Source: Anaeromyxobacter sp. (GTDB lineage: Bacteria; Myxococcota; Myxococcia; Myxococcales; Anaeromyxobacteraceae). From it: DNA of 64,000 nt. A program made the translations under genes and the position numbers. The stretch lies in assembly GCA_049840735.1 (NCBI GenBank), contig JASGJN010000004.1, positions 1-64,000 of the forward strand, in the 5' to 3' direction. The notes under the pieces were generated by a model. That model was not told the DNA's origin and did no database searches. It saw only the letters and a list, made by a program, of their open reading frames with translations. Of this stretch, positions 36,653-47,998 are shown piece after piece (position 1 is the first letter of the stretch; each line of letters begins with the position of its first letter).

Positions 36653-38756
36653 GTGATCAGGATCCCCAAGGGCTTCCGGTTCGGCGGCATCGCCTGCGGG
36701 CTCAAGCCGCAGCGGCGCGACCTCGCGCTGGTGGTCTCGGATCACCCGGCCTCCGCGGCCGGCGTGTTCACCACCAACCGCGCCGCCGCCGCGCCGGTGC
36801 AGGACGCGCGCGCGCGCGTGCCGGCCGAGGGGATCCGGGCCATCGTGGCCAACTCGGGCAACGCCAACGCGCTCACCGGCCCGGCCGGCCTGGACGACGT
36901 CTCGGTGATCCGCTCGGCGGTGGCCGACGCGCTGGGGCTGCAGAAGCGGGCGGTGCTGACCGCCTCCACCGGCGTGATCGGCGCGCGGCTGCCGGCCATG
37001 AAGATCGTCACCGCGCTGCCGGCCCTGGTGGAGCAGCTGGGCGACCACCCCGACCTCTGCGCCGAGGCCATCATGACCACCGACACGCGCCCGAAGATGA
37101 CGGCGCGCGAGGTGACGCTGGGCGGCAAGGTCGCGACCATCGCCGCGGTGTGCAAGGGCTCGGGCATGCTGGCGCCCCAGCTGGCCACCACCCTGTGCCT
37201 GCTGGTGACCGACGCGGCGGTCTCGCCCGGCGCGCTGCAGGCGGTGCTGCAGCGGGCGGTGAGGAAGACGCTCAACATGGTGACGGTGGACGGCGAGACC
37301 TCCACCAACGACACCGTCTACCTGCTGGCCAACGGCCTGGCCGGCAACGCCCGGCTGCACGAGGCCGGCGCCGACCTGGACCGCTTCGAGACCGCCCTCA
37401 CCGACCTGCTGGGCGAGATGGCCCGCGCCATGGCGGCCGACGGCGAGGGCGCCACCAAGATGGTCGAGGTGGTGGTGGCCGGCGCGCCGGGCGAGGGCGA
37501 GGCGGAGGAGCTGGCCCGGGCCATCGCCTCCTCCCCGCTGGTCAAGGCGGCGCTGTTCGGCGCCGATCCGAACTGGGGCCGGATCCTGGCCACGGTCGGC
37601 GCGCGCGCCGGGGCCCGCGGCTGGGCCATCGACCCCTTCGGCGCCACGGTGGCGCTGCAGGGCGTGACCGTCTTCTCCGCCGGCGCGCCGGTGGAGTTCG
37701 ACCGGGAGGCGCTGCGCGCCAAGATGCGCGAGAGCCGGGTGGACGTGGGCGTGATGCTCACCGGCGGCCAGGCGCGGGCGGTGGCCTGGGGCTGCGACCT
37801 CACCTACGACTACGTGAAGATCAACGCCGACTACAGCTCCACCATCGTCCAGAAGGAGGACGGCGGCGTCGCCAAGGACGACCGCGTGGCCAACTACAGC
37901 CCCGCCTTCAAGCGGGCGCTGCTGGTGGAGGCGCTCAAGTACATCTCGGCCTTCTCCGGCCAGGTGGCGGTCATCAAGTACGGCGGCGCGGCCATGGTGA
38001 AGGACAGCCTCAAGGAGGCCTTCGCCGAGGACGTCACGCTGCTGAAGCGGGTGGGGCTCAAGCCGGTGGTGGTGCACGGCGGCGCGCCCGGAGATCACCC
38101 GCACGCTGGAGAAGCTGGGCGAGCGGAGCGAGTTCGTGGACGGCATGCGCATCACCGACGCGCAGAGCCTCCCGGTGGTGGAGATGGTCCTCTCCGGCAA
38201 GGTGAACCAGGAGCTGGTGGCGCTGCTCAACGCCCGCAACGCCGGGGCGGTGGGCGTCTCCGGGAAGGACGGCAAGCTGCTCCGGGCCCGCAAGGCGGTG
38301 CACGCCTCCGGCCGCGACCTGGGGCACGTGGGCGAGGTGGTGGAGGTGAACACCTCCTTCCTCCGGATGCTGCTCGACGGCGGTTACGTGCCGGTGATCT
38401 CGCCCATCGGCCTGGCCGACGACGGCTCCGGCCTGTCCATCAACGGCGACGACGTGGCCTCGGCGGTGGCCGAGGCGCTGGGCGCCAAGAAGCTCATCTA
38501 CCTGACCGACGTGCCTGGCCTGCTGGAGTCCTCGCCGGACGGGGAGCTGGTCCGCCAGACCACCGCGGCCGACCTGGCGCGGCGCATCGAGGCCGGCGCC
38601 ATCACCGGCGGCATGAAGTGGAAGGTCAACGCCATCCTGGCGGCGCTCCGGGGCGGGGTGCCGCGCGTGCACGTGCTGGACGGGCGGCAGCCGCACACCG
38701 TCATCGCCGAGCTCTTCACCGACCGCGGCGTCGGCACCCTGGTGACCCCGACATGA
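36653..38756 (+). CDS. argJ: Fused ornithine acetyltransferase (ArgJ) and acetylglutamate kinase (ArgB); read frameshift near 38090
   Basis: [25 protein letters not shown] and DGEGATK, then in frame [14 protein letters not shown]; the next frame continues GMRITD, INGD, GGM and ELFT. Confidence 0.9.
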
Positions 38757-39241
38757 GCAACGCCGATCGCCGCCGCGAGGCCGTGGCCCGCATCATCCGG
38801 ACGCGCCGCATCGGCACGCAGGAGGCGCTGCTGGAGGCGGTCGTCGCCGCCGGCTTCCAGGCCACCCAGGCCACCCTCTCGCGCGACCTGGCGCGGCTGG
38901 GGGCCCGCCGCGTCTCGCGCCCCGAGGGCGGCTCGATCTACGAGCTGGCCGAGGGCGCGCCCGGGCCGGCCGACGAGCTGGCCACGCTGCGCCCGCTGGT
39001 CTCCCGGCTCGACGCGAACGGCTCGCTGGTGGTGATCCGCACGCACCCCGGCAGCGCGCCCGCCATCGCGCGGGCCATCGACCTGGCCCAGCTCCCCGAG
39101 GTGCTGGGGACCATCGCCGGCGACGACACCATCTTCGTGGCCCCGGCCGGCGAGCTGCGCCCGCGCCGGCTGGCGGCCCGCCTGGCCGAGCTGCTGGGCA
39201 CGCCGGCGGCGCTGGGCGACGGCGCGCGCGCCGACGGCTGA
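38753..39241 (+). CDS. argR: Arginine repressor
   Basis: TQATLSRDL and [12 protein letters not shown] overlap with the upstream gene. Confidence 0.93.
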
Positions 39242-39254
39242 GCCAGGCGACGGC

Positions 39255-39927
39255 TCAGCCGCAGAATCACCGCGCCGTCCACGGTGCGGCAGTTCATGTC
39301 CTTCTTCTGCTGCTCGTAGCGCTCGTCCATCTTGCCGGCGTCGAGGAAGCCGCCGCCCCCGCTGCCCTCGATGGCGCGGGTGTGGGCGTTGGTCTCGCGC
39401 GCCGGCGTCGGCTCGCCCGCCCCGCCGGCCGGCGCCGGCTGCGGCGACGCCGGCGCGGCGCCCTGGGGTGAGGCGCCCGCGGGCTGGCCGCCGGCGGCCG
39501 GCGGCTGCTCCGGCGCGGGCTGGCCGCGGCCGTTCTCCACCACGCCCACCGTGGCCGTCACCGGGCGCGCGCTGTGGACCCGGTCCGGCGGGACCGCGGC
39601 GCCGCCGGTGTAGTGGACGGAGCCGTCCTCGCCGGTCCAGCTGTAGATGGTCGCGTCGTCGAGCCCGGCGGGCTGGGCGCGCGCCGCGGCCGGCAGCGGC
39701 GCCGGCTCGGCGGCCGGGGGCGGCGGCTCGGCGGGCGCAGGCGCCGCCTCGGCCTGCGCCGCCGGCTCGGGCTCGGCCTCGGCAGGCTCGGCCTCGGCGG
39801 CCGGCTCGGGCGCAGCGGCCTCCCCGGCCGCGGGCTCGGCCGGCGCGGGCGGCTCGGCAGGCGGAGCCGAGGGCCGGCTGCAGGCGAGGCCCAGCGCGAG
39901 GAGGAAGGTGGCAGCGCGGAGACGCAT
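39255..39927 (-). CDS. Pro/Ala-rich lipoprotein with DUF4124-like motif
   Basis: Lipobox-like LGLAC and IYSWTGEDGSVHYT. Confidence 0.65.
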
Positions 39928-40016
39928 GTGGGCTCCTGTCCGCCGCGCAGGCGCGCGGCTGGAGGATGGTCTCACGCCGCGCCGGCCGGTGCCAGCCCGC
40001 CTGCCCCGGGGCCAGC

Positions 40017-41235
40017 TCAGCCCAGCGCCGCCAGCCGGTTCCACTCCTCCAGCGAGCGGATCACGCAGTCCTCGATGGCCAGGCCGGCGAAGTAGTTGCC
40101 GGTGATGGCCAGCCGCGAGCCGGCCAGGCACTGGTCGATCTCGCGGACGATCTCGCCGTGGCCGATGGCCGGCGAGGGGAGCGTGAGCCGCTTCTCGACC
40201 AGCTCGCCCAGCTCCGCCTCCGGCACGCGCAGCACCTCGGCCATGCGCCGCAGGCGGGCCTCGCGGGGCACGTCGCCGCGGAAGTGGAAGGTGAAGGAGC
40301 GGCGCTTCCCGTCGGGGAACGGGTCGCGCGTCACGCAGGAGTAGAAGAGGTCGTCCACCGGCACGACGAAGGCGCAGTCGGGCATCCAGCACTTCTCGCG
40401 CGGTAGCACCAGCCCGACGCTCTCCACCTCGACCGTCTTGACCCGCTGGATGGCCGCGGCCACCTCGTGGAACGCGCCCTGGAGCACCCGGACGGCCTGG
40501 TCCGGCGTGGCCGCGACCGCCACCGACGGCGCCTCCAGCCTGCGCCCGTCGGCGGTGCGGACCGCGTACCCGGCGCCGGCCGGCTCCACCGCCACCACCT
40601 CGACGCCCTGCTCCACCGTCACGCCGCGCGAGCGGGCGGCGGCGTCGCAGACCAGCTGCAGGCCGCCGTCGAAGCCGAAGCTGCGCACGAACTCCTCGCG
40701 CCGCGGGCGCTTCTTGAAGAGCGACCCGGGCCCCTCCACCGGGAAGCCGTCCGCCTTCTGCGAGGGCACCGCGGCGAAGAAGGGCGAGAAGATCCGGTCG
40801 TAGTTCCGCCGGCCGACCAGGCTCGAGTAGTAGGAGTAGACGGTTCTCGCCGTCCTTCTTCTTGAACACGCCGCGCAGGAACGCGGCGCCGGCCTCGAGC
40901 CAGTTGAGCTGCAGCAGGATCCTGGGCGGCGTGAGCCAGGTGTAGCTCGAGCCGCGCAGCAGGCCGAACTTCGCGCGGGCCTCGCCGCGCTGGACGATCT
41001 TGCCGGCGATGCCGCCGGTCACGGCGATGTCGAGGAAGTTGCCGTAGCTGTTGTAGACGGTGTGCGCGCCCATCTCGAACCAGAAGCCGTCGGGCCGCCG
41101 GTGCGAGTGGAGGCACCCGCCCACCCGGCGGTCGCGCTCCAGGACCAGCGCGCGCTTGCCCGCCTGCCCGGCCCGCCAGGCCAGGGCCAGTCCGCTGATG
41201 CCGCCCCCCACCACGATCACGTCTGCGGTCGCCAT
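40017..41235 (-). CDS. FAD-dependent oxidoreductase, HemY/protoporphyrinogen oxidase-like (frameshift near 40845)
   Basis: VVGGGISGL, RVGGC, EMGAHT, TGNYFAGLAIEDCV. Confidence 0.75.
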
Positions 41236-41377
41236 GTCTCTGCCGTCACCCCTGAGGAGCCCCCGGCGCCTGCCGGTCCCTCGCGAGGGTCGCAGAGAAC
41301 GGCGCGGCGCGCCAGCGCTCGTTTCAGGCGCGCGGCCGCGGGTGGCCGACGCTCCGGGGAGGGCTTAGACAAAGGCC

Positions 41378-42257
41378 ATGCGCATGCGGATCGGGTTCAT
41401 CGGCCTGGGGACCATCGGCGAGCCCATCGCCAACAACCTCCGCAAGGCGGGGCACGACCTCACGGTCTGGAACCGCACCGCCGCCAGGGCCAGCCACCTC
41501 ACCGCCAGGGGCGGCCGGCTCGCCGCCACGCCGCGCGAGTGCGCCTCCGGCCGGGATTCTGGTCTTCACCTGCGTCGCGGACGAGCGGGCCCTGGCCGCG
41601 GTGCTGGACGGCCCGGACGGCGCGCTGGCTGGCCTCGGGGAGGGCGACGTGCTGGTGGACCTCACCACCGCCGGCGTCGCCGCGGCCCGGGCGGCCAGCG
41701 AGCGCGCGGCCCGGGCCGGGGCCCGGTTCCTGGCCTGCCCGGTGCTGGGCTCCAAGGCCGCGGCGGAGCAGGGCCAGGTGGTGCTGGTGTGCGGCGGCCC
41801 CGGCCCGGCGCGGGAGCGGGCCCGCCCGGCGCTGCACGCGATCTCGTCCCGGCTCTTCGAGCTGGACGACCCCGCGCAGGCGGCGCTGATGAAGCTCTGC
41901 ATCAACGCCATCGGCGGCGCGATGATCACCGGCTTCGCCGAGGCGCTGGCGCTGGGCGGCGCCGGCGGGCTGGAGATCTGGCGGATGGTCGAGGTGCTGC
42001 AGGCCTCGTCGTTCCACTCGCCGCTCTTCCTCATGAAGGGCGAGCTGATCGAGAAGGGCGACTACGCGCCGCGCTTCCGGCTCAGCCTGGCGGAGAAGGA
42101 CCAGCGGCTGGCGCAGGAGGCGGCGGCCGGGCTGGGGTGCAGGCTCCCCATCAACGATGCGGTCCGGAGGCTGCTCCACGAGGCGGCGGAGGCGGGCGGC
42201 GACCGCGACTTCTGCGCGGTCGCGGAGCACCTGAGGAAGAAGAAGGGGCTGGGCTGA
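41378..42257 (+). CDS. 3-hydroxyisobutyrate/6-phosphogluconate dehydrogenase-family oxidoreductase (frameshift near 41555)
   Basis: IGFIGLGTIG, WNRT, PVLGS, MKLCIN, FRLSLAEKD. Confidence 0.88.
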
Positions 42258-42388
42258 TCCCTGGCCTTCGACTCCGGGCCGCTTCGCGGCCCTACGCTCA
42301 GATGGAATGAAGCGGCTGGCCTCCACCTCGGGGTGGTGGCACGAATGCCCCACAACGCGGTCAGAGCCGCAGAGAGTGGAGACCAGCC

Positions 42389-43423
42389 GTGGACCATATT
42401 GGCATCGACCTGCACAAGAAGGACAGCCAGCTTTGCATCCTGAACGCGGAGGGCGGGGTCCTGGAGGTGCGGATCCCCACCCGGGCCGACCGGTTCGCCG
42501 AGGTGCTCGCGAACAGGCCGCGGGCCAAGCTCCTGCTGGAGGCCTCCACGGAAAGCGAATGGGTGGCGCGGCACATCGAATCGCTCGGGCACGAAGTGAT
42601 CGTGGCCGACCCGAACTACGCGCCGATGTACGGGACGCGGACGAGGCGGGTAAAGACCGATCGGCGAGATGCCCGAGCGCTGGCCGAGGCTTGCCGTTCA
42701 GGGACCTACCGAGCGGCCCACCGGAGGTCGGAATCTCGGCGGACGGTCGCTGTCCGCCTGTCGGTGAGAGACACGCTGGTCCGCACCAGGTCGCGGTTCA
42801 TCACGGTGGACCCCGGACGTCCTTGCGGAGCCACGGGCTACGGGCCCCGAGCTGCGAAGCCGAGCACTTCGCGCGAGTGGTGTTGGAGATGGCCCTGCCG
42901 GACGAGGTCCGCGACGAGGTCGAGCCGTTGCTGCTGATGTTCGACACGCTGAACGCCCGGATCGCCAAGGCCGACGCTGACCTCGAGGCCATCGCCCGCG
43001 ACAGCGCAGTGGTACGGAGGCTCACGACGGCGCCAGGCGTGGGCGTCGTGACGGCCATTGCGTACGACGTCGTCATCGATGATCCCAAGCGCTTCCAGAG
43101 TGCCCAGCAGGTGTCCGCCTACTGCGGCCTGGTCCCTAGCGAGCTGAGCTCGGGCGAGAAACAGCGCAAGGGGCGGATCACCAAGACCGGCAACGCCAGG
43201 GTGCGCTGGCTTCTCGTCCAGGCCGCGCACTGCGTCTTGCGCAGCAAGAGCGCAGAGTCGCTGCCGCTGCGCGAATGGGCGGGGAAGATCCACCGGCGGA
43301 GGGCGACGCGCAGTCGCCGTCGTGGCGCTGGCGCGCAAACTCTCCGGAATCCTGTTCGCGATGATGAGGGACGGGAAGGACTTCGACGGCAGCCGCACCT
43401 GCAGGGGAAACGCGATGGCCTAG
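42389..43423 (+). CDS. IS110-family DEDD recombinase/transposase (frameshifts near 42810 and 43300)
   Basis: IGIDLHK, LLEAS, KTDRRDA (DEDD); PGVG; GLVPSELSSG serine loop; ITKTGN. Confidence 0.93.
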
Positions 43424-43718
43424 ACGACCGAAATCGGACCCAGTCGGGCGGACGCCGGGCCGGAGATCCGGGAGTGAGGCGAAAGCGGGTTTCGAGACAG
43501 GGTGAGCGCGAGTTCGGCCTTGGCCGGTCACCAGGAACGGCCGTCGCTCAGATGGCGCCCCCTGCTCGAATCCCCCACTGCGCCGGCGGCACTGCCGCCC
43601 CTGTTGAGCGCGAATAGAAGGCTGATGGAACTCGCGTTCGCCTGACTCCCTGACCGATGGCCAACCAGCGCCGCCCAGGCTTCAGGACAAACGACATCAC
43701 CGGCCCTTGACCGGGGAC
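43424..43718 (+). ncRNA. Putative bridge/seek RNA in the IS right end (boundaries unknown)
   Basis: Stem-loop 43491-43570 with internal-loop segments GTTCGGCCT and CGCTCAG matching the two halves of the target. A second loop holds ATAGAAG, matching the IS right end. Confidence 0.75.
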
Positions 43719-43787
43719 GCCGCTTCATAGAAGGCCGAACGGTGAGGGCCGGACCCGCAGAGCCGGGCCGCTGCGCGGCCCTACGCT

Positions 43788-43995
43788 CAATGCCGGTCAC
43801 TTAGGCAGCCGCCAGTTGCGGTCGTAGTGGCTCATCTTGATCTTCACCGCCCTCGGGTATCGACGTTTGGAGCGGCGAGGTGGCAAGACGAACTGGCTGA
43901 GATCTTCGGTGCTTCTCTCGATGAACGCCGAGAGCTTGCCTGGGCTCACCAGCGCAGCCAGGCGGAGGGTGTCGCGAGCCAGTCGGAGTTCGCTC
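43788..43995 (-). pseudogene. IS4-family remnant: terminal inverted repeat plus transposase C-terminus
   Basis: CAATGCCGGTCACTTAGG resembles the IS4 terminus (TAATGCCGATCAGTTAAG as recalled). Peptide ..SPG..LPPRRSKRRYPRAVKIKMS is typical of IS4-group C-termini. Confidence 0.75.
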
Positions 43996-44043
43996 AGGCC
44001 GAGCGGGGGCGGCACCCCGAGTTGACCCGGGGTGACGCAGGAT

Positions 44044-44093
44044 CCGTTCGCCCTGAGCGTAGCGGGCCCGCAGGGCCCGCGGAGTCGAAGGGC
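44044..44093 (-). repeat. REP-like element (CCTTCGACTCC-hairpin-CTACGCTCAGG.CGAACGG family)
   Basis: CCGTTCGCCCTGAGCGTAG-CGGGCCCGCAGGGCCCG-CGGAGTCGAAGGGC; same family at 42263, 47442, 47619, 47949, 56008, 56655, 63581 and 63688. Confidence 0.85.
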
Positions 44094-44102
44094 AGGGATT
44101 CG

Positions 44103-44480
44103 CTAGTGCGTCGTCATCGAGAGCGCGTCCCCCACGACCTTGACCAGGTCGTCCAGGTGGAACGGCTTCTTCACGTAGCCGGCGGCGTGGCCGATGGGCT
44201 CCACCACCCGCGCGACCTCCTCGGGCGGCGTGGCCGACACGAACAGCACCTTGGGGCACCGCTCCCCGAGCGAGCCGCGCAGCCGCTCGAACAGGACGGC
44301 ACCGCTCATGCGGGGCATCCGATAGTCCAGCAGCGCCAGATCCGGGGGTTCGCGCTCGGCCAGCTCCAGGGCTTCCTCAGCGGTCGAGACCGAGACGGCC
44401 GTGTGCCCCATGCGCTTGACCGCCAGCTCGAGCGCGCGGCGGACGATGTCTGTGTCGTCTACGATCAGGACCTGTGCCAC
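44103..44480 (-). CDS. Single-domain response regulator
   Basis: VLIVDD, LLDYRMP, VSA, KPF. Confidence 0.9.
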   Translation of the reverse strand: MAQVLIVDDTDIVRRALELAVKRMGHTAVSVSTAEEALELAEREPPDLALLDYRMPRMSGAVLFERLRGSLGERCPKVLFVSATPPEEVARVVEPIGHAAGYVKKPFHLDDLVKVVGDALSMTTH

Positions 44481-44655
44481 GTCGTGCGTTCTCCGGTGCT
44501 GCTCCCGGTCCATGGCACATGCGCGTACCGTGCCGCGGCGCGCCGGAGGAATATGTCCACGGATCAGGGGATTGCACCGGCTTCGCTGAGAGTGAGGATG
44601 ACCCCAGGGTCCCTCGTGCCGGGTATCCTACTTCCCACCCCTGCCGGAGCAACTG

Positions 44656-45720
44656 TCAGACAGGCGAGCCGTAGCGCGCCTGCATCCTTCGGACGCGCTC
44701 CCCGAAGTGGCGCCTTGCCGCAGCGGGGGCGATGACCTCCGCCTGCCCCCCCAGGGAGAGGGCGAAGCGGGTGGCCCACTCCTCGCCGGCCTTCACCTCG
44801 ATGACCGCGCTGCCGTCCTCGCCGCGCTTCACCAGCGCGATGCCGGGGCGCGAGAGCGCCCAGCCGGCGGCCGCCGGCGAGATGCGGATCCGGACCGGCT
44901 CGCCGGAGCCCTCGGAGAAGAGGCGCGCCCGGGCCAGCTCGGCCTCGGCCGGCGGCTCGAACCGCTCCGCCAGCACCTGCACCTCGCCGATCCGGTCCAG
45001 GCGGAAGGCCAGCGCCTTCTCGCGCGAGGCGTCGTGGCCGTAGAGGTACCAGTGGCCGAACCGCTGGGCCAGCGTGTAGGGCTTCACCGTCCGCTCGGTC
45101 TCGGCGTCGCGCGAGGCGGAGTGGTAGGCCAGCCGCACCGCGCGCCGCTCGGCGATGGCGCGCTGCAGCCGGCCCAGCACCGAGTCGCGCGCCGGCGGCG
45201 CGCCGGCGTAGATGCGCCCCACCAGCTCGTCGAAGGAGGCGCGGCGGTCGCGCGGGACCGCGTCGCGCAGCGCCCTCACGGCCCGCTCGCGCCCCTCGCC
45301 GCCCAGCGCCTGGGCCGCGGCGGCCAGCGCGGCGGCCTCGCTCTCGGTGAAGCGCGGCGGGCGGGAGAAGGACTGGTGCAGCGCCACGTAGACCCGGTCC
45401 CCCTCCACGTACAGGTCGAGGAAGTCGTCCGGCGCGAAGGGCGGGGAGCCCACGTTGAGCAGGAAGTCGAGATCCTCGAGCAGCTCCTTCTCGGTGCAGC
45501 CGCAGCGGCGCGCCAGGTCCTTCACCGGGATGCCCGGGTGGCGGACCGCGTACGGCACGAGGAAGAGCACCCGGCGCAGCCGGTCGCGCGGGTCGTTGCG
45601 CGCTTTGTCGGCCCGCGGCTCGGCCTTGCGCGCCCGGGGCGCGGCGGCGCCCCTCCGCCCGGCCTGGGCCTCCGGGGCGGCGGCCTCGCGGCGGCGGGCG
45701 GGCTTGCGGGCGGCGGTCAC
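44656..45720 (-). CDS. PafC-like HTH-WYL protein
   Basis: RLRRVLFLVPY..DLDFL HTH; ERTVKPY, GHWYLYG, AFRLDRI; GTG start overlaps the upstream stop. Confidence 0.85.
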   Translation of the reverse strand: MTAARKPARRREAAAPEAQAGRRGAAAPRARKAEPRADKARNDPRDRLRRVLFLVPYAVRHPGIPVKDLARRCGCTEKELLEDLDFLLNVGSPPFAPDDFLDLYVEGDRVYVALHQSFSRPPRFTESEAAALAAAAQALGGEGRERAVRALRDAVPRDRRASFDELVGRIYAGAPPARDSVLGRLQRAIAERRAVRLAYHSASRDAETERTVKPYTLAQRFGHWYLYGHDASREKALAFRLDRIGEVQVLAERFEPPAEAELARARLFSEGSGEPVRIRISPAAAGWALSRPGIALVKRGEDGSAVIEVKAGEEWATRFALSLGGQAEVIAPAAARRHFGERVRRMQARYGSPV

Positions 45721-46719
45721 GCGATCACCTCCGCCAGCGCGCCCAGCACCTCGCGCGCCCGCTCGCGCAGCGCCTTCGGGGCCAGCACCTCGGCGCGGTC
45801 GCCCAGCGCCAGGACGTGGCGCAGGAGCCCCTCGCCGTTGGTGACCTCCAGCTCCACCACCACCCCGCCCTCCTCCTCCCGCACCCGCGCCCGCGGGCCG
45901 AAGGAGGCGAGCACCTCCGTCGAGAACCGGCGAGTCGAGCCGGACGCGGGCGCGCAGCGGCCCGTGGACGGTGTACTCCCAGGCCTCGCGGGTGGCGTAC
46001 TCGGCCAGCGAGAAGTCCTTGCGCGGCTGGAAGTCAGCGGTGCGCGGGGCGGAGGGGTTCACCTCCAGCGCCTCCACGCGCGACAGGTGGAAGGTCCGGA
46101 TGTCCTTGCGCAGCAGGCACCAGCCCACCAGGAACCAGGCGCCGCCCTTCTGGAAGAGACCGTACGGGTGGACGTCGCGCTCGGTGCGCACCCGGCGCTC
46201 GGCGCCGGTGTAGGCCAGGTGGACCCGCTTCTTGTGCGCGATGGCGCGGGAGAGCGCCTCCACCTTGTCCCCCACCGCGCTGCCGTCCCCGTCGGCCGAG
46301 AGCTGCTGCGTGGCCACGGCGGCCGCCTCCGAGGCGCCGGGGGCGCGGGCGGCGAAGGAGAGCTTGTTGAGCGCGTGGGCCAGGTCGCGGGCGTAGGGGA
46401 AGCTGCCCTGGGCCAGGGCCGCCGAGCCGGCCACGTAGAGGAGCGCCAGGTCCTCCGGCGGCAGCTGGAGGTCAGGTAGGTAGAACTCGTCCTTGTCGAT
46501 CAGGTAGCCGGCGGGCAGGTCCTCGTCGCCGGCCACGTACCGGACCGGGATTCCCAGCTCCAGGAGATCCGCCTTGTCCCGCTCGAACTTGCGGATGGCG
46601 GCCTCGCCCTTCCCCGCGTAATCGTCGGGAAACTGCTCCTGGATCTCGCGCCAGGAGACGGGCTCGGCGGCCTTCAGCAAGAGGGCCGCCAGATCCAGGA
46701 GCCGCTGATCCTTCTGCAT
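45717..46719 (-). CDS. PafB-like HTH-WYL protein (frameshift near 45925)
   Basis: QRLLDL..RKFERDKADLLELGIP; RDVHPYG, GAWFLVG, RTFHLSRV. Confidence 0.85.
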
Positions 46720-46799
46720 CGGGCGAGAACCTAGCAGGCGCGCCCGGCCAGTCAACGTGTGCTACGATGGGCTGCACGTCGAGAGGCGGGAGCGGTCGC

Positions 46800-47441: not shown

Positions 47442-47998
47442 GCCCTTCGACTCCGCTCGCCCTGCGGGATCGCTACGCTCAGGGCGAACGGGGCCCCTCG
47501 GTGCCGGGCGGACCATGACTCAGGCCGGTCGGACCATGACTCAGGCCGAGCGGACCATGCGACTTGGCGCCGCTCTACAAGGTGCTGGTGAACGCGGAGT
47601 AGGGCCGCAGCGTCCCCTGCCCTTCGACTCCGCTCGCCCTGCGGGCTCGTTACGCTCAGGGCGAACGGGGCCCCTCGGAGCCGAGCGGACCATGACTCAG
47701 GCCGGTCGGACCATGACTCAGGCCGAGCGGACCATGACTCAGGCCGAGCGGACCATGACTCAGGCCGAGCGGACCATGACTCAGGCCGAGCGGACCATGA
47801 CTCAGGCCGAGCGGACCATGACCCAGGCCGGGCGGAAACAGCTCAGGCCGGGCGGACCCATGACTCAGGCCGAGCGGAAACAGCTCAGGCCGGTCGGACC
47901 CATGACCCAGGCCGGGCGGAAACAGCTCAGGCCGAGCGGGCTGTGAACCCGTTCGGCCTGAGCGTAGCCGCCGCGCAGCGGCGGCGGAGTCGAAGGCC
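47442..47998. repeat. REP doublet enclosing a ~21-bp tandem array, with an internal ~176-bp duplication
   Basis: REP copies at 47442-47491 and 47619-47668, inverted copy at 47949-47998; unit CTCAGGCCGAGCGGACCATGA, about 12 copies in 47696-47939. Confidence 0.92.

Follow-up and report, generated by a model that had tools for sequence, protein, structure and literature searches.

Two sets of described systems lie close to the element reported here. IS621 and ISCro4/IS622 (PMC11208160, PMC11208158; PDB 8wt6, 9t56) use an RNA with two internal loops, encoded upstream of the recombinase gene, which has a 9-nt left target guide and a CT core; IS621 inserts into a REP. In IS621 each right guide is followed by two bases that, once strands have been exchanged, pair with the other DNA. 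The target carries GC and the donor AT at positions 6-7, and the wild-type handshake AU/GU has been improved to AU/GC (PMC11208158; PMC13626964).

The second set, ISPa11, ISEc11 and ISKpn4, consists of IS1111 elements with a seekRNA (PMC11187229). They have sub-terminal inverted repeats, usually of 11-13 bp, set 7 and 3 bp inside the element ends, a transposase of 330-350 amino acids, a long 3' non-coding region, a guide in which the top-strand match precedes the bottom-strand match, and a single orientation of insertion. ISPa11, whose seekRNA has been sequenced, likewise targets a REP. Two papers of 2024 disagree about the role of IS1111 RNAs, target seeking alone or donor binding as well, and the recognition of IS1111 ends is left open in section 14 of PMC11187229. 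Bridge RNAs have been predicted in 93% of the IS1111 elements in ISfinder, with donor-binding bases in some of them (PMC11208160, section 12).

The present element lies in the window, a stretch of 64,000 nucleotides from an Anaeromyxobacter sp. genome (here G000) of 6.67 Mb. It is a clear further example of the described class of RNA-guided DNA recombinases, and its arrangement has been published before, as has the targeting of a REP by an IS1111 element, ISPa11 (PMC11187229). The element shares all the traits just listed for ISPa11, ISEc11 and ISKpn4, a likeness of layout, but it has another target, another host and a 10-bp repeat. With IS621 and ISCro4 it has in common the two internal loops, the CT core and the 9-nt left target guide, and with IS621 also a REP target and the bases GC and AT at positions 6-7 of target and donor. 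Unlike in IS621 and ISCro4, the RNA lies 3' of the gene, target and donor are read on the opposite strand relative to the gene, the inverted repeats are long, the left donor guide is much weaker, and the transposase is distant from theirs (E 1e-12 to 1e-15). The native right target guide has 7 nt compared to 4 nt in IS621, and the element natively carries the handshake AU/GC, which in IS621 is a product of engineering. Donor guides and handshake bases are readable in this element, whereas the portions of PMC11187229 that describe ISPa11, ISEc11 and ISKpn4 hold neither.

What appears to be new is comparative support for donor reading and for one handshake in an IS1111 clade, as well as selection of a REP subtype. 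A search of titles and abstract openings, with subscription papers and ISfinder outside its scope, returned no description of this element, and an earlier name is possible. The readable parts of the PMC11208160 supplements contain none of ISAde, ISAnsp, ISMxa and Anaeromyxobacter, nor either of two right-donor scaffold strings. The clade itself is in that dataset, because one unnamed protein in the supplement shares a peptide motif with it.

Anatomy of the element and its transposase

The following features define the element.

42300..43731, + strand: IS1111-group insertion sequence, with five copies in the genome
42300..42301, + strand: AG core dinucleotide (CT on the minus strand), the element's own copy by the IS1111 7-bp/3-bp convention
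42307..42316, + strand: left sub-terminal inverted repeat ATGAAGCGGC, 7 bp inside the element end
43719..43728, + strand: right sub-terminal inverted repeat GCCGCTTCAT, 3 bp inside the element end
42389..43423, + strand: IS110-family transposase gene, with matches to PF01548, PF02371 and NF033542

The element is 1432 bp long and belongs to the IS1111 group of the IS110 family. The original prediction had named an IS110/IS1111 element with 10-bp sub-terminal inverted repeats, and this assignment holds: the 10-bp repeats and their 7- and 3-bp extensions are the end geometry of the IS1111 group. The strings that it had quoted are all in place (AG at 42300-42301 and 43732-43733, the RNA segments 43512-43520, 43545-43551 and 43614-43620, and the stem arms 43491-43502 and 43560-43570). 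One copy of the apparent duplication is counted as part of an IS1111 element (PMC11187229, section 4). A target-site duplication was rejected, because the 7/3 convention gives one AG to the element; it is also contradicted by the junction dinucleotides, which are unequal in 20 of 71 homologues. The AG is a core common to both junctions, not a duplication, and at 42300-42301 its A is conserved in 100% and its G in 99% of 72 homologues. The long non-coding region downstream of the gene, a trait of the IS1111 group, is present, with 308 bp 3' of the stop codon compared to 89 bp 5' of the start. The GC content of the element is 67.8%, that of the genome 73.5%. A scan of 41500-44500 against Rfam, at E up to 5, gave nothing relevant.

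An intact transposase of 343 residues is encoded by three of the five genomic copies. It scores 249 bits against NF033542 (cut-off 140) and falls, as compared by length, within the IS1111 range of 330-350 residues. The hallmark domains of IS110 are present, an N-terminal DEDD RuvC-like domain (PF01548) and the C-terminal PF02371. Residues D7, E51, D91, D94 and S254 align with the catalytic motifs of IS621 and ISCro4, S254 being the serine of GLVPSELSSG, the local form of the family motif G--P----SG. With this protein as the query, no further IS110 transposase was found in the genome at a significant E.

The other two copies are frameshifted. In one of them, the window copy, the gene is broken by a +2 shift near 42810 and a +1 shift at 43304, and if both are real this copy would need transposase in trans. 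The shifts are possibly assembly errors, because the neighboring dehydrogenase gene also appears split. Split-looking host genes across 36653-46755 (e.g. the dehydrogenase, 41378/41601) suggest assembly indel errors. The second broken copy (G000 C26:118178-119612) differs by insertions of 1 and 7 bases and by several substitutions of its own.

The REP target and the guides that match it

The four copies outside the window are 98.6-99.3% identical to the window copy. All five occupy separate loci, at the same base of the same REP and in a single orientation.

42263..42299, + strand: left part of the host REP, comprising outer arm, GC-rich hairpin and CTACGCTC; same layout in five copies
43732..43742, + strand: right part of the host REP, core AG followed by GCCGAACGG; same layout in five copies
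43512..43520, + strand: left target guide, 9 nt, GTTCGGCCT, complementary to the + strand of the REP right part including the core
43545..43551, + strand: right target guide, 7 nt, CGCTCAG, pairing with the minus strand

The right target guide reads the last 5 bases of the REP left part plus AG. In the RNA the plus-strand match precedes the minus-strand match, as in the IS1111 group. Both target guides together, on either strand, occur in 6 of 20,000 dinucleotide shuffles of 43424-43718.

The host REP resembles the CGTC-tagged REPs (PMC3733652) in lying between genes, in its palindromic form with a 4-base tag next to the stem, and in its frequent pairing or clustering. Members of that superfamily have a CGTC-type tag, a stem of 8-9 bp and a loop of 4-5 bases, whereas the REP of this genome has the tag CGTT (minus strand) and, in its loop, a long GC-rich hairpin. 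The words 'myxo' and 'dehalogenans' are absent from the text of PMC3733652. The family pattern is present in 25 of 37 genomes of the genus, G000 counted. There are six PF01797 matches in the genome, and at the three loci inspected for a REP-associated Y1 transposase none was adjoined by this REP. A partial second REP, consisting of the hairpin and CTACGCTCA and missing the outer arms, lies at 43756-43791, 13 bp past the right part of the target. Tandem REP arrays with many perfect empty targets are found at G000 C20:653800-655350, C10:71700-73800 and C26:251200-251600.

A loose search found 701 REP-like sites in the genome. At 381 empty canonical sites AG is followed by GG (118), GC (101), CC (80), GA (69) or another pair (13), and these subtype bases covary with the far arm of the palindrome. 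The GC subtype, the variant that the 9-nt left target guide matches in full, constitutes 106 of 386 sites and holds all five insertions (p=0.0015; with tandem clusters collapsed, 79 of 297 sites, p=0.0012). The predicted targeting of a REP is thus borne out in five insertions of five, all in the guide-matching subtype. The guide fits a subtype with an expansion in G000, where the exact GC-subtype 19-mer occurs 93 times; of the 36 other genomes of the genus that were searched, one has this 19-mer.

The REP could contribute more than its sequence, if its GC-rich hairpin were a second determinant beside guide pairing, as in ISPpu10, for which such a gate has been reported (10.64898/2026.03.19.712850). 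The hairpin is present at all five insertion sites, but 99 of the 101 empty perfect 14-mer targets also fall inside a REP, and the genome therefore cannot separate hairpin from sequence. We regard a structural determinant of this kind as possible, if on the unlikely side.

Covariation was examined in homologues drawn from the best 80 of 147 genome loci, the best 80 of at least 513 metagenome loci and 30 loci of the order. From 194 loci, 1 duplicate, 17 with less than 44% identity, 12 partial loci and 48 without a callable repeat pair or flank were left out. The 116 loci and the window copy formed 74 groups, reduced to 72 by dropping L082 and L097, in which ends or scaffold were unrecognizable. 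The inverted repeats served to place the element ends, and conserved scaffold columns mapped from the window copy to place the guides, independently of the target.

In the 72 groups the right target guide matches its own flank at 4.10 of 5 non-core positions on average, compared to 1.60 after permutation. The left target guide scores 3.88 of 7 compared to 1.90 in a fixed register, and 5.29 of 6 compared to 2.68 if a 1-nt shift is allowed. None of 2000 permutations reaches any of these scores, and 28 guide-distinct elements agree. Permutation among kin inflates significance, and nearest pairs and tree counts are the fairer evidence. In 36 disjoint nearest-neighbor pairs the own flank matches better than the partner's in 24, worse in 2 and equally in 10. 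In a protein tree with 69 members, from which L036 and two short sequences were omitted, joint changes at the five right-target positions number 18-35, compared to 33-49 if independent. The right guide is perfect in 32 of the 72, the left in 14 (fixed register) and both in 9, the window element among them. Homologues present in several copies likewise have a specific target and one orientation. The predicted 3' guide RNA with two target guides is thereby upheld. Homologues at other sites with unchanged loops had been named as a possible refutation; instead, the loops change with the sites.

The closest relative among the matches listed, L005 (67% identity), agrees with the window element in left flank, left end and right guide and differs from it in the left guide; the contig ends before the right flank of L005. 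The pair is an apparent case of natural retargeting among REP variants. Best matches within the genus are 33-40% identical, and full-length relatives at 55-57% belong to other families; both figures come from a strict first look at 301 genomes of the order and are floors. We infer horizontal arrival of the element, because the nearest full-length relatives are in other families and its GC content departs from that of the genome.

Several relatives deserve separate mention. In the clade with a TTGGT left end (L006, L010, L016, L030 and kin) the right junction often has AA or GG in place of AG, and the left guide stands one base out of its usual register; these elements may have a shorter or differently placed core. 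At least 14 near-identical copies (L042-L057, L072) lie on one Vicinamibacterales chromosome, 12 of them at a common site one base off the right guide, and one at a site where the right guide matches in full and the left poorly. L075, 45% identical and with the same right guide, is inserted in a CGTC-tagged palindromic repeat, which its regions 200-320 and 1740-1860 bear, and its left guide matches fully.

The predicted RNA and probable recognition of the element ends

Two features describe the predicted RNA as a whole.

43495..43639, + strand: core of the predicted bridge/seek RNA as conserved in the family alignment, containing two internal loops
43522..43542, + strand: hairpin capping the target-binding loop, three of five pairs changed on both sides

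The region first proposed for folding, 43424-43718, gives a z-score of -2.0, with 3 of 100 shuffles as good. Segment 43470-43660 is stronger, folding better than 200 of 200 shuffles (z -3.5). A single-sequence fold pairs parts of the guides. In the RNAalifold consensus, computed from a hand-thinned set of 44 of the 71 core sequences, the four guide segments are all single-stranded and lie between short helices. A model of 22 pairs has 93.6% of its cells paired, compared to 30-54% in slid controls, and two-sided changes in 11 of the 22 pairs; no shuffle equalled it. The loops are closed by GCGC/GCGC helices (43506-43509 with 43555-43558, and 43580-43583 with 43608-43611), which are nearly invariant, and the closing helix of the second loop shows little covariation. 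Each loop has a GCGC helix on one side and a helix starting with UG on the other, in opposite order between the loops. The arms of the originally predicted stem are present, but its outer portion overlaps 43566-43568, which in the family alignment are paired with 43623-43625, with weak covariation. A profile of the RNA matched only the five elements in the genome, and no stand-alone RNA copies.

The second loop and the bases following the right guides contain the candidate donor-reading segments.

43614..43620, + strand: right donor guide ATAGAAG, 7 nt, equal to the element's last 5 bases plus the core
43570..43578, + strand: left donor guide in the register favored by covariation, matching at 4 of 9 positions in the window element
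43552..43553, + strand: target-loop handshake AU, equal to the element's first two bases after the core and pairing only after exchange
43621..43622, + strand: donor-loop handshake position GC, matching the target in the window element

These segments bear on whether the RNA reads the ends at all. It might pick the target alone, the protein reading the ends at the inverted repeats and the second loop being structural or dispensable. An RNA of 70-100 nt with target matches is enough for ISEc11 (PMC11187229, section 14), the inverted repeats are almost invariant in the clade, and the left donor guide matches poorly. In 69 of 72 homologues the right donor guide is identical to the element's last five bases, but four of the five bases are invariant, which makes most of this match uninformative; ATAGAAG itself is present in 38 of 20,000 dinucleotide shuffles of 43424-43718. 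The remaining base varies much, and the RNA mirrors it: the guide base agrees in 68 of 69 elements, as the earlier call of this guide would have it, with 6 changes in the DNA, 5 in the RNA and 6 jointly on the tree. The second loop carries the same scaffold motifs as the first. The left donor guide had been placed in a register that ends on an invariant scaffold T at 43579, and this must be corrected, since covariation favors 43570-43578. This best of 7 registers scores 3.93 of 7, compared to 2.83 permuted, an excess that comes from positions 3-5 and in part from 7; at positions 3-5 the guide follows the donor at 0.75-0.83, compared to 0.41-0.64 expected. The mirrored right-end base, the tracking left positions and the shared motifs argue against an RNA that only seeks its target, and we consider such an RNA improbable in this element.

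The reading in which the second loop pairs with the joined ends is extended by the handshake. With GC in the target, AT in the donor and AU/GC in the RNA, the window element would form four handshake pairs after exchange and none before; all four are found in 12 of 72 elements. In 58 of 71 homologues the target-loop handshake is identical to the first two bases of the donor, although the tree holds only about 3 donor changes for each position. The donor-loop handshake shows no covariation with the target across the 72 homologues, its score being reached by 33 of 2000 permutations and by 188 of 2000 in the guide-distinct set. An IS621-type post-exchange handshake, new for this element, is suggested family-wide by the alignment for the target loop only. 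A 4-nt donor-loop handshake was rejected, because the TG after GC is scaffold.

Proposed mechanism and surroundings

The anatomy, the site and subtype specificity, the covariation of guides with target and right end, and the conserved fold are directly supported. On this comparative evidence it is very probable that the IS1111-group element moves by RNA-guided recombination, with a two-loop 3' RNA that reads both the REP site and the joined ends. Transcription, circle formation, protein binding, catalysis and direction we infer from IS621, ISEc11 and ISPa11.

43707..43712, + strand: TTGACC, a -35-like hexamer 25 bases from the right end

The 3' end would be transcribed, probably from a promoter created when the ends join in the circle, and TTGACC is a candidate half of this circle-junction promoter. 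Of 72 homologues, 50 have a -35-like hexamer at a distance of 25 or 26 bases from the right end. No accompanying -10 box was recognized, and a promoter and terminator scan of the linear element found neither. The transcript would be the RNA with two internal loops. Its first loop is predicted to pair, on both strands, with a 14-bp stretch of one REP subtype, the guides overlapping at AG/CT, and its second with the joined element ends, firmly at the right and weakly at the left. The DEDD/serine transposase would exchange strands at the core, and the handshake pairs, formed only after exchange, would favor insertion. Even for IS621 the question of donor excision or copying is unsettled (10.64898/2026.08.31.748434). 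That the protein reads the REP directly, and that the 3'-end matches are captured scraps or chance, is scarcely credible, because the position of these matches in the scaffold is fixed, dozens of elements show them changing along with the target, and they discriminate REP subtypes 1-2 bases apart.

For the clade as a whole, we give even weight for and against a stronger reading, in which these IS1111 RNAs are true bridges that read the ends of their own element and use an IS621 handshake, and in which the present element has natively what was engineered into IS621, a 7-nt right target guide and four post-exchange handshake pairs, and distinguishes REP subtypes 1-2 bases apart. If this is true, about 70 naturally reprogrammed relatives on one compact scaffold would make a test system for IS1111 end recognition, and the element would be a candidate editor that is orthogonal to IS621. 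As a clean natural test case, the element offers exact single-base swaps at the right donor guide and at the one handshake position that covary with the ends.

Further features are found beyond the right junction. On the minus strand, 43797-44048 is an open frame without a clear start, ending in ...YPRAVKIKMSHYDRNWRLPK and present once in the genome; it had no matches in NCBIfam and Atlas, and we take it to resemble the tail of an IS4-type transposase. A long open reading frame at 44656-46755, also on the minus strand, gave no match in an NCBIfam search as read, and presumably resembles a frameshifted pair of WYL-domain (PafB/PafC-like) regulators. A tandem array at about 47500-47900, which translates to repeated MTQAERT units, adjoins a REP.
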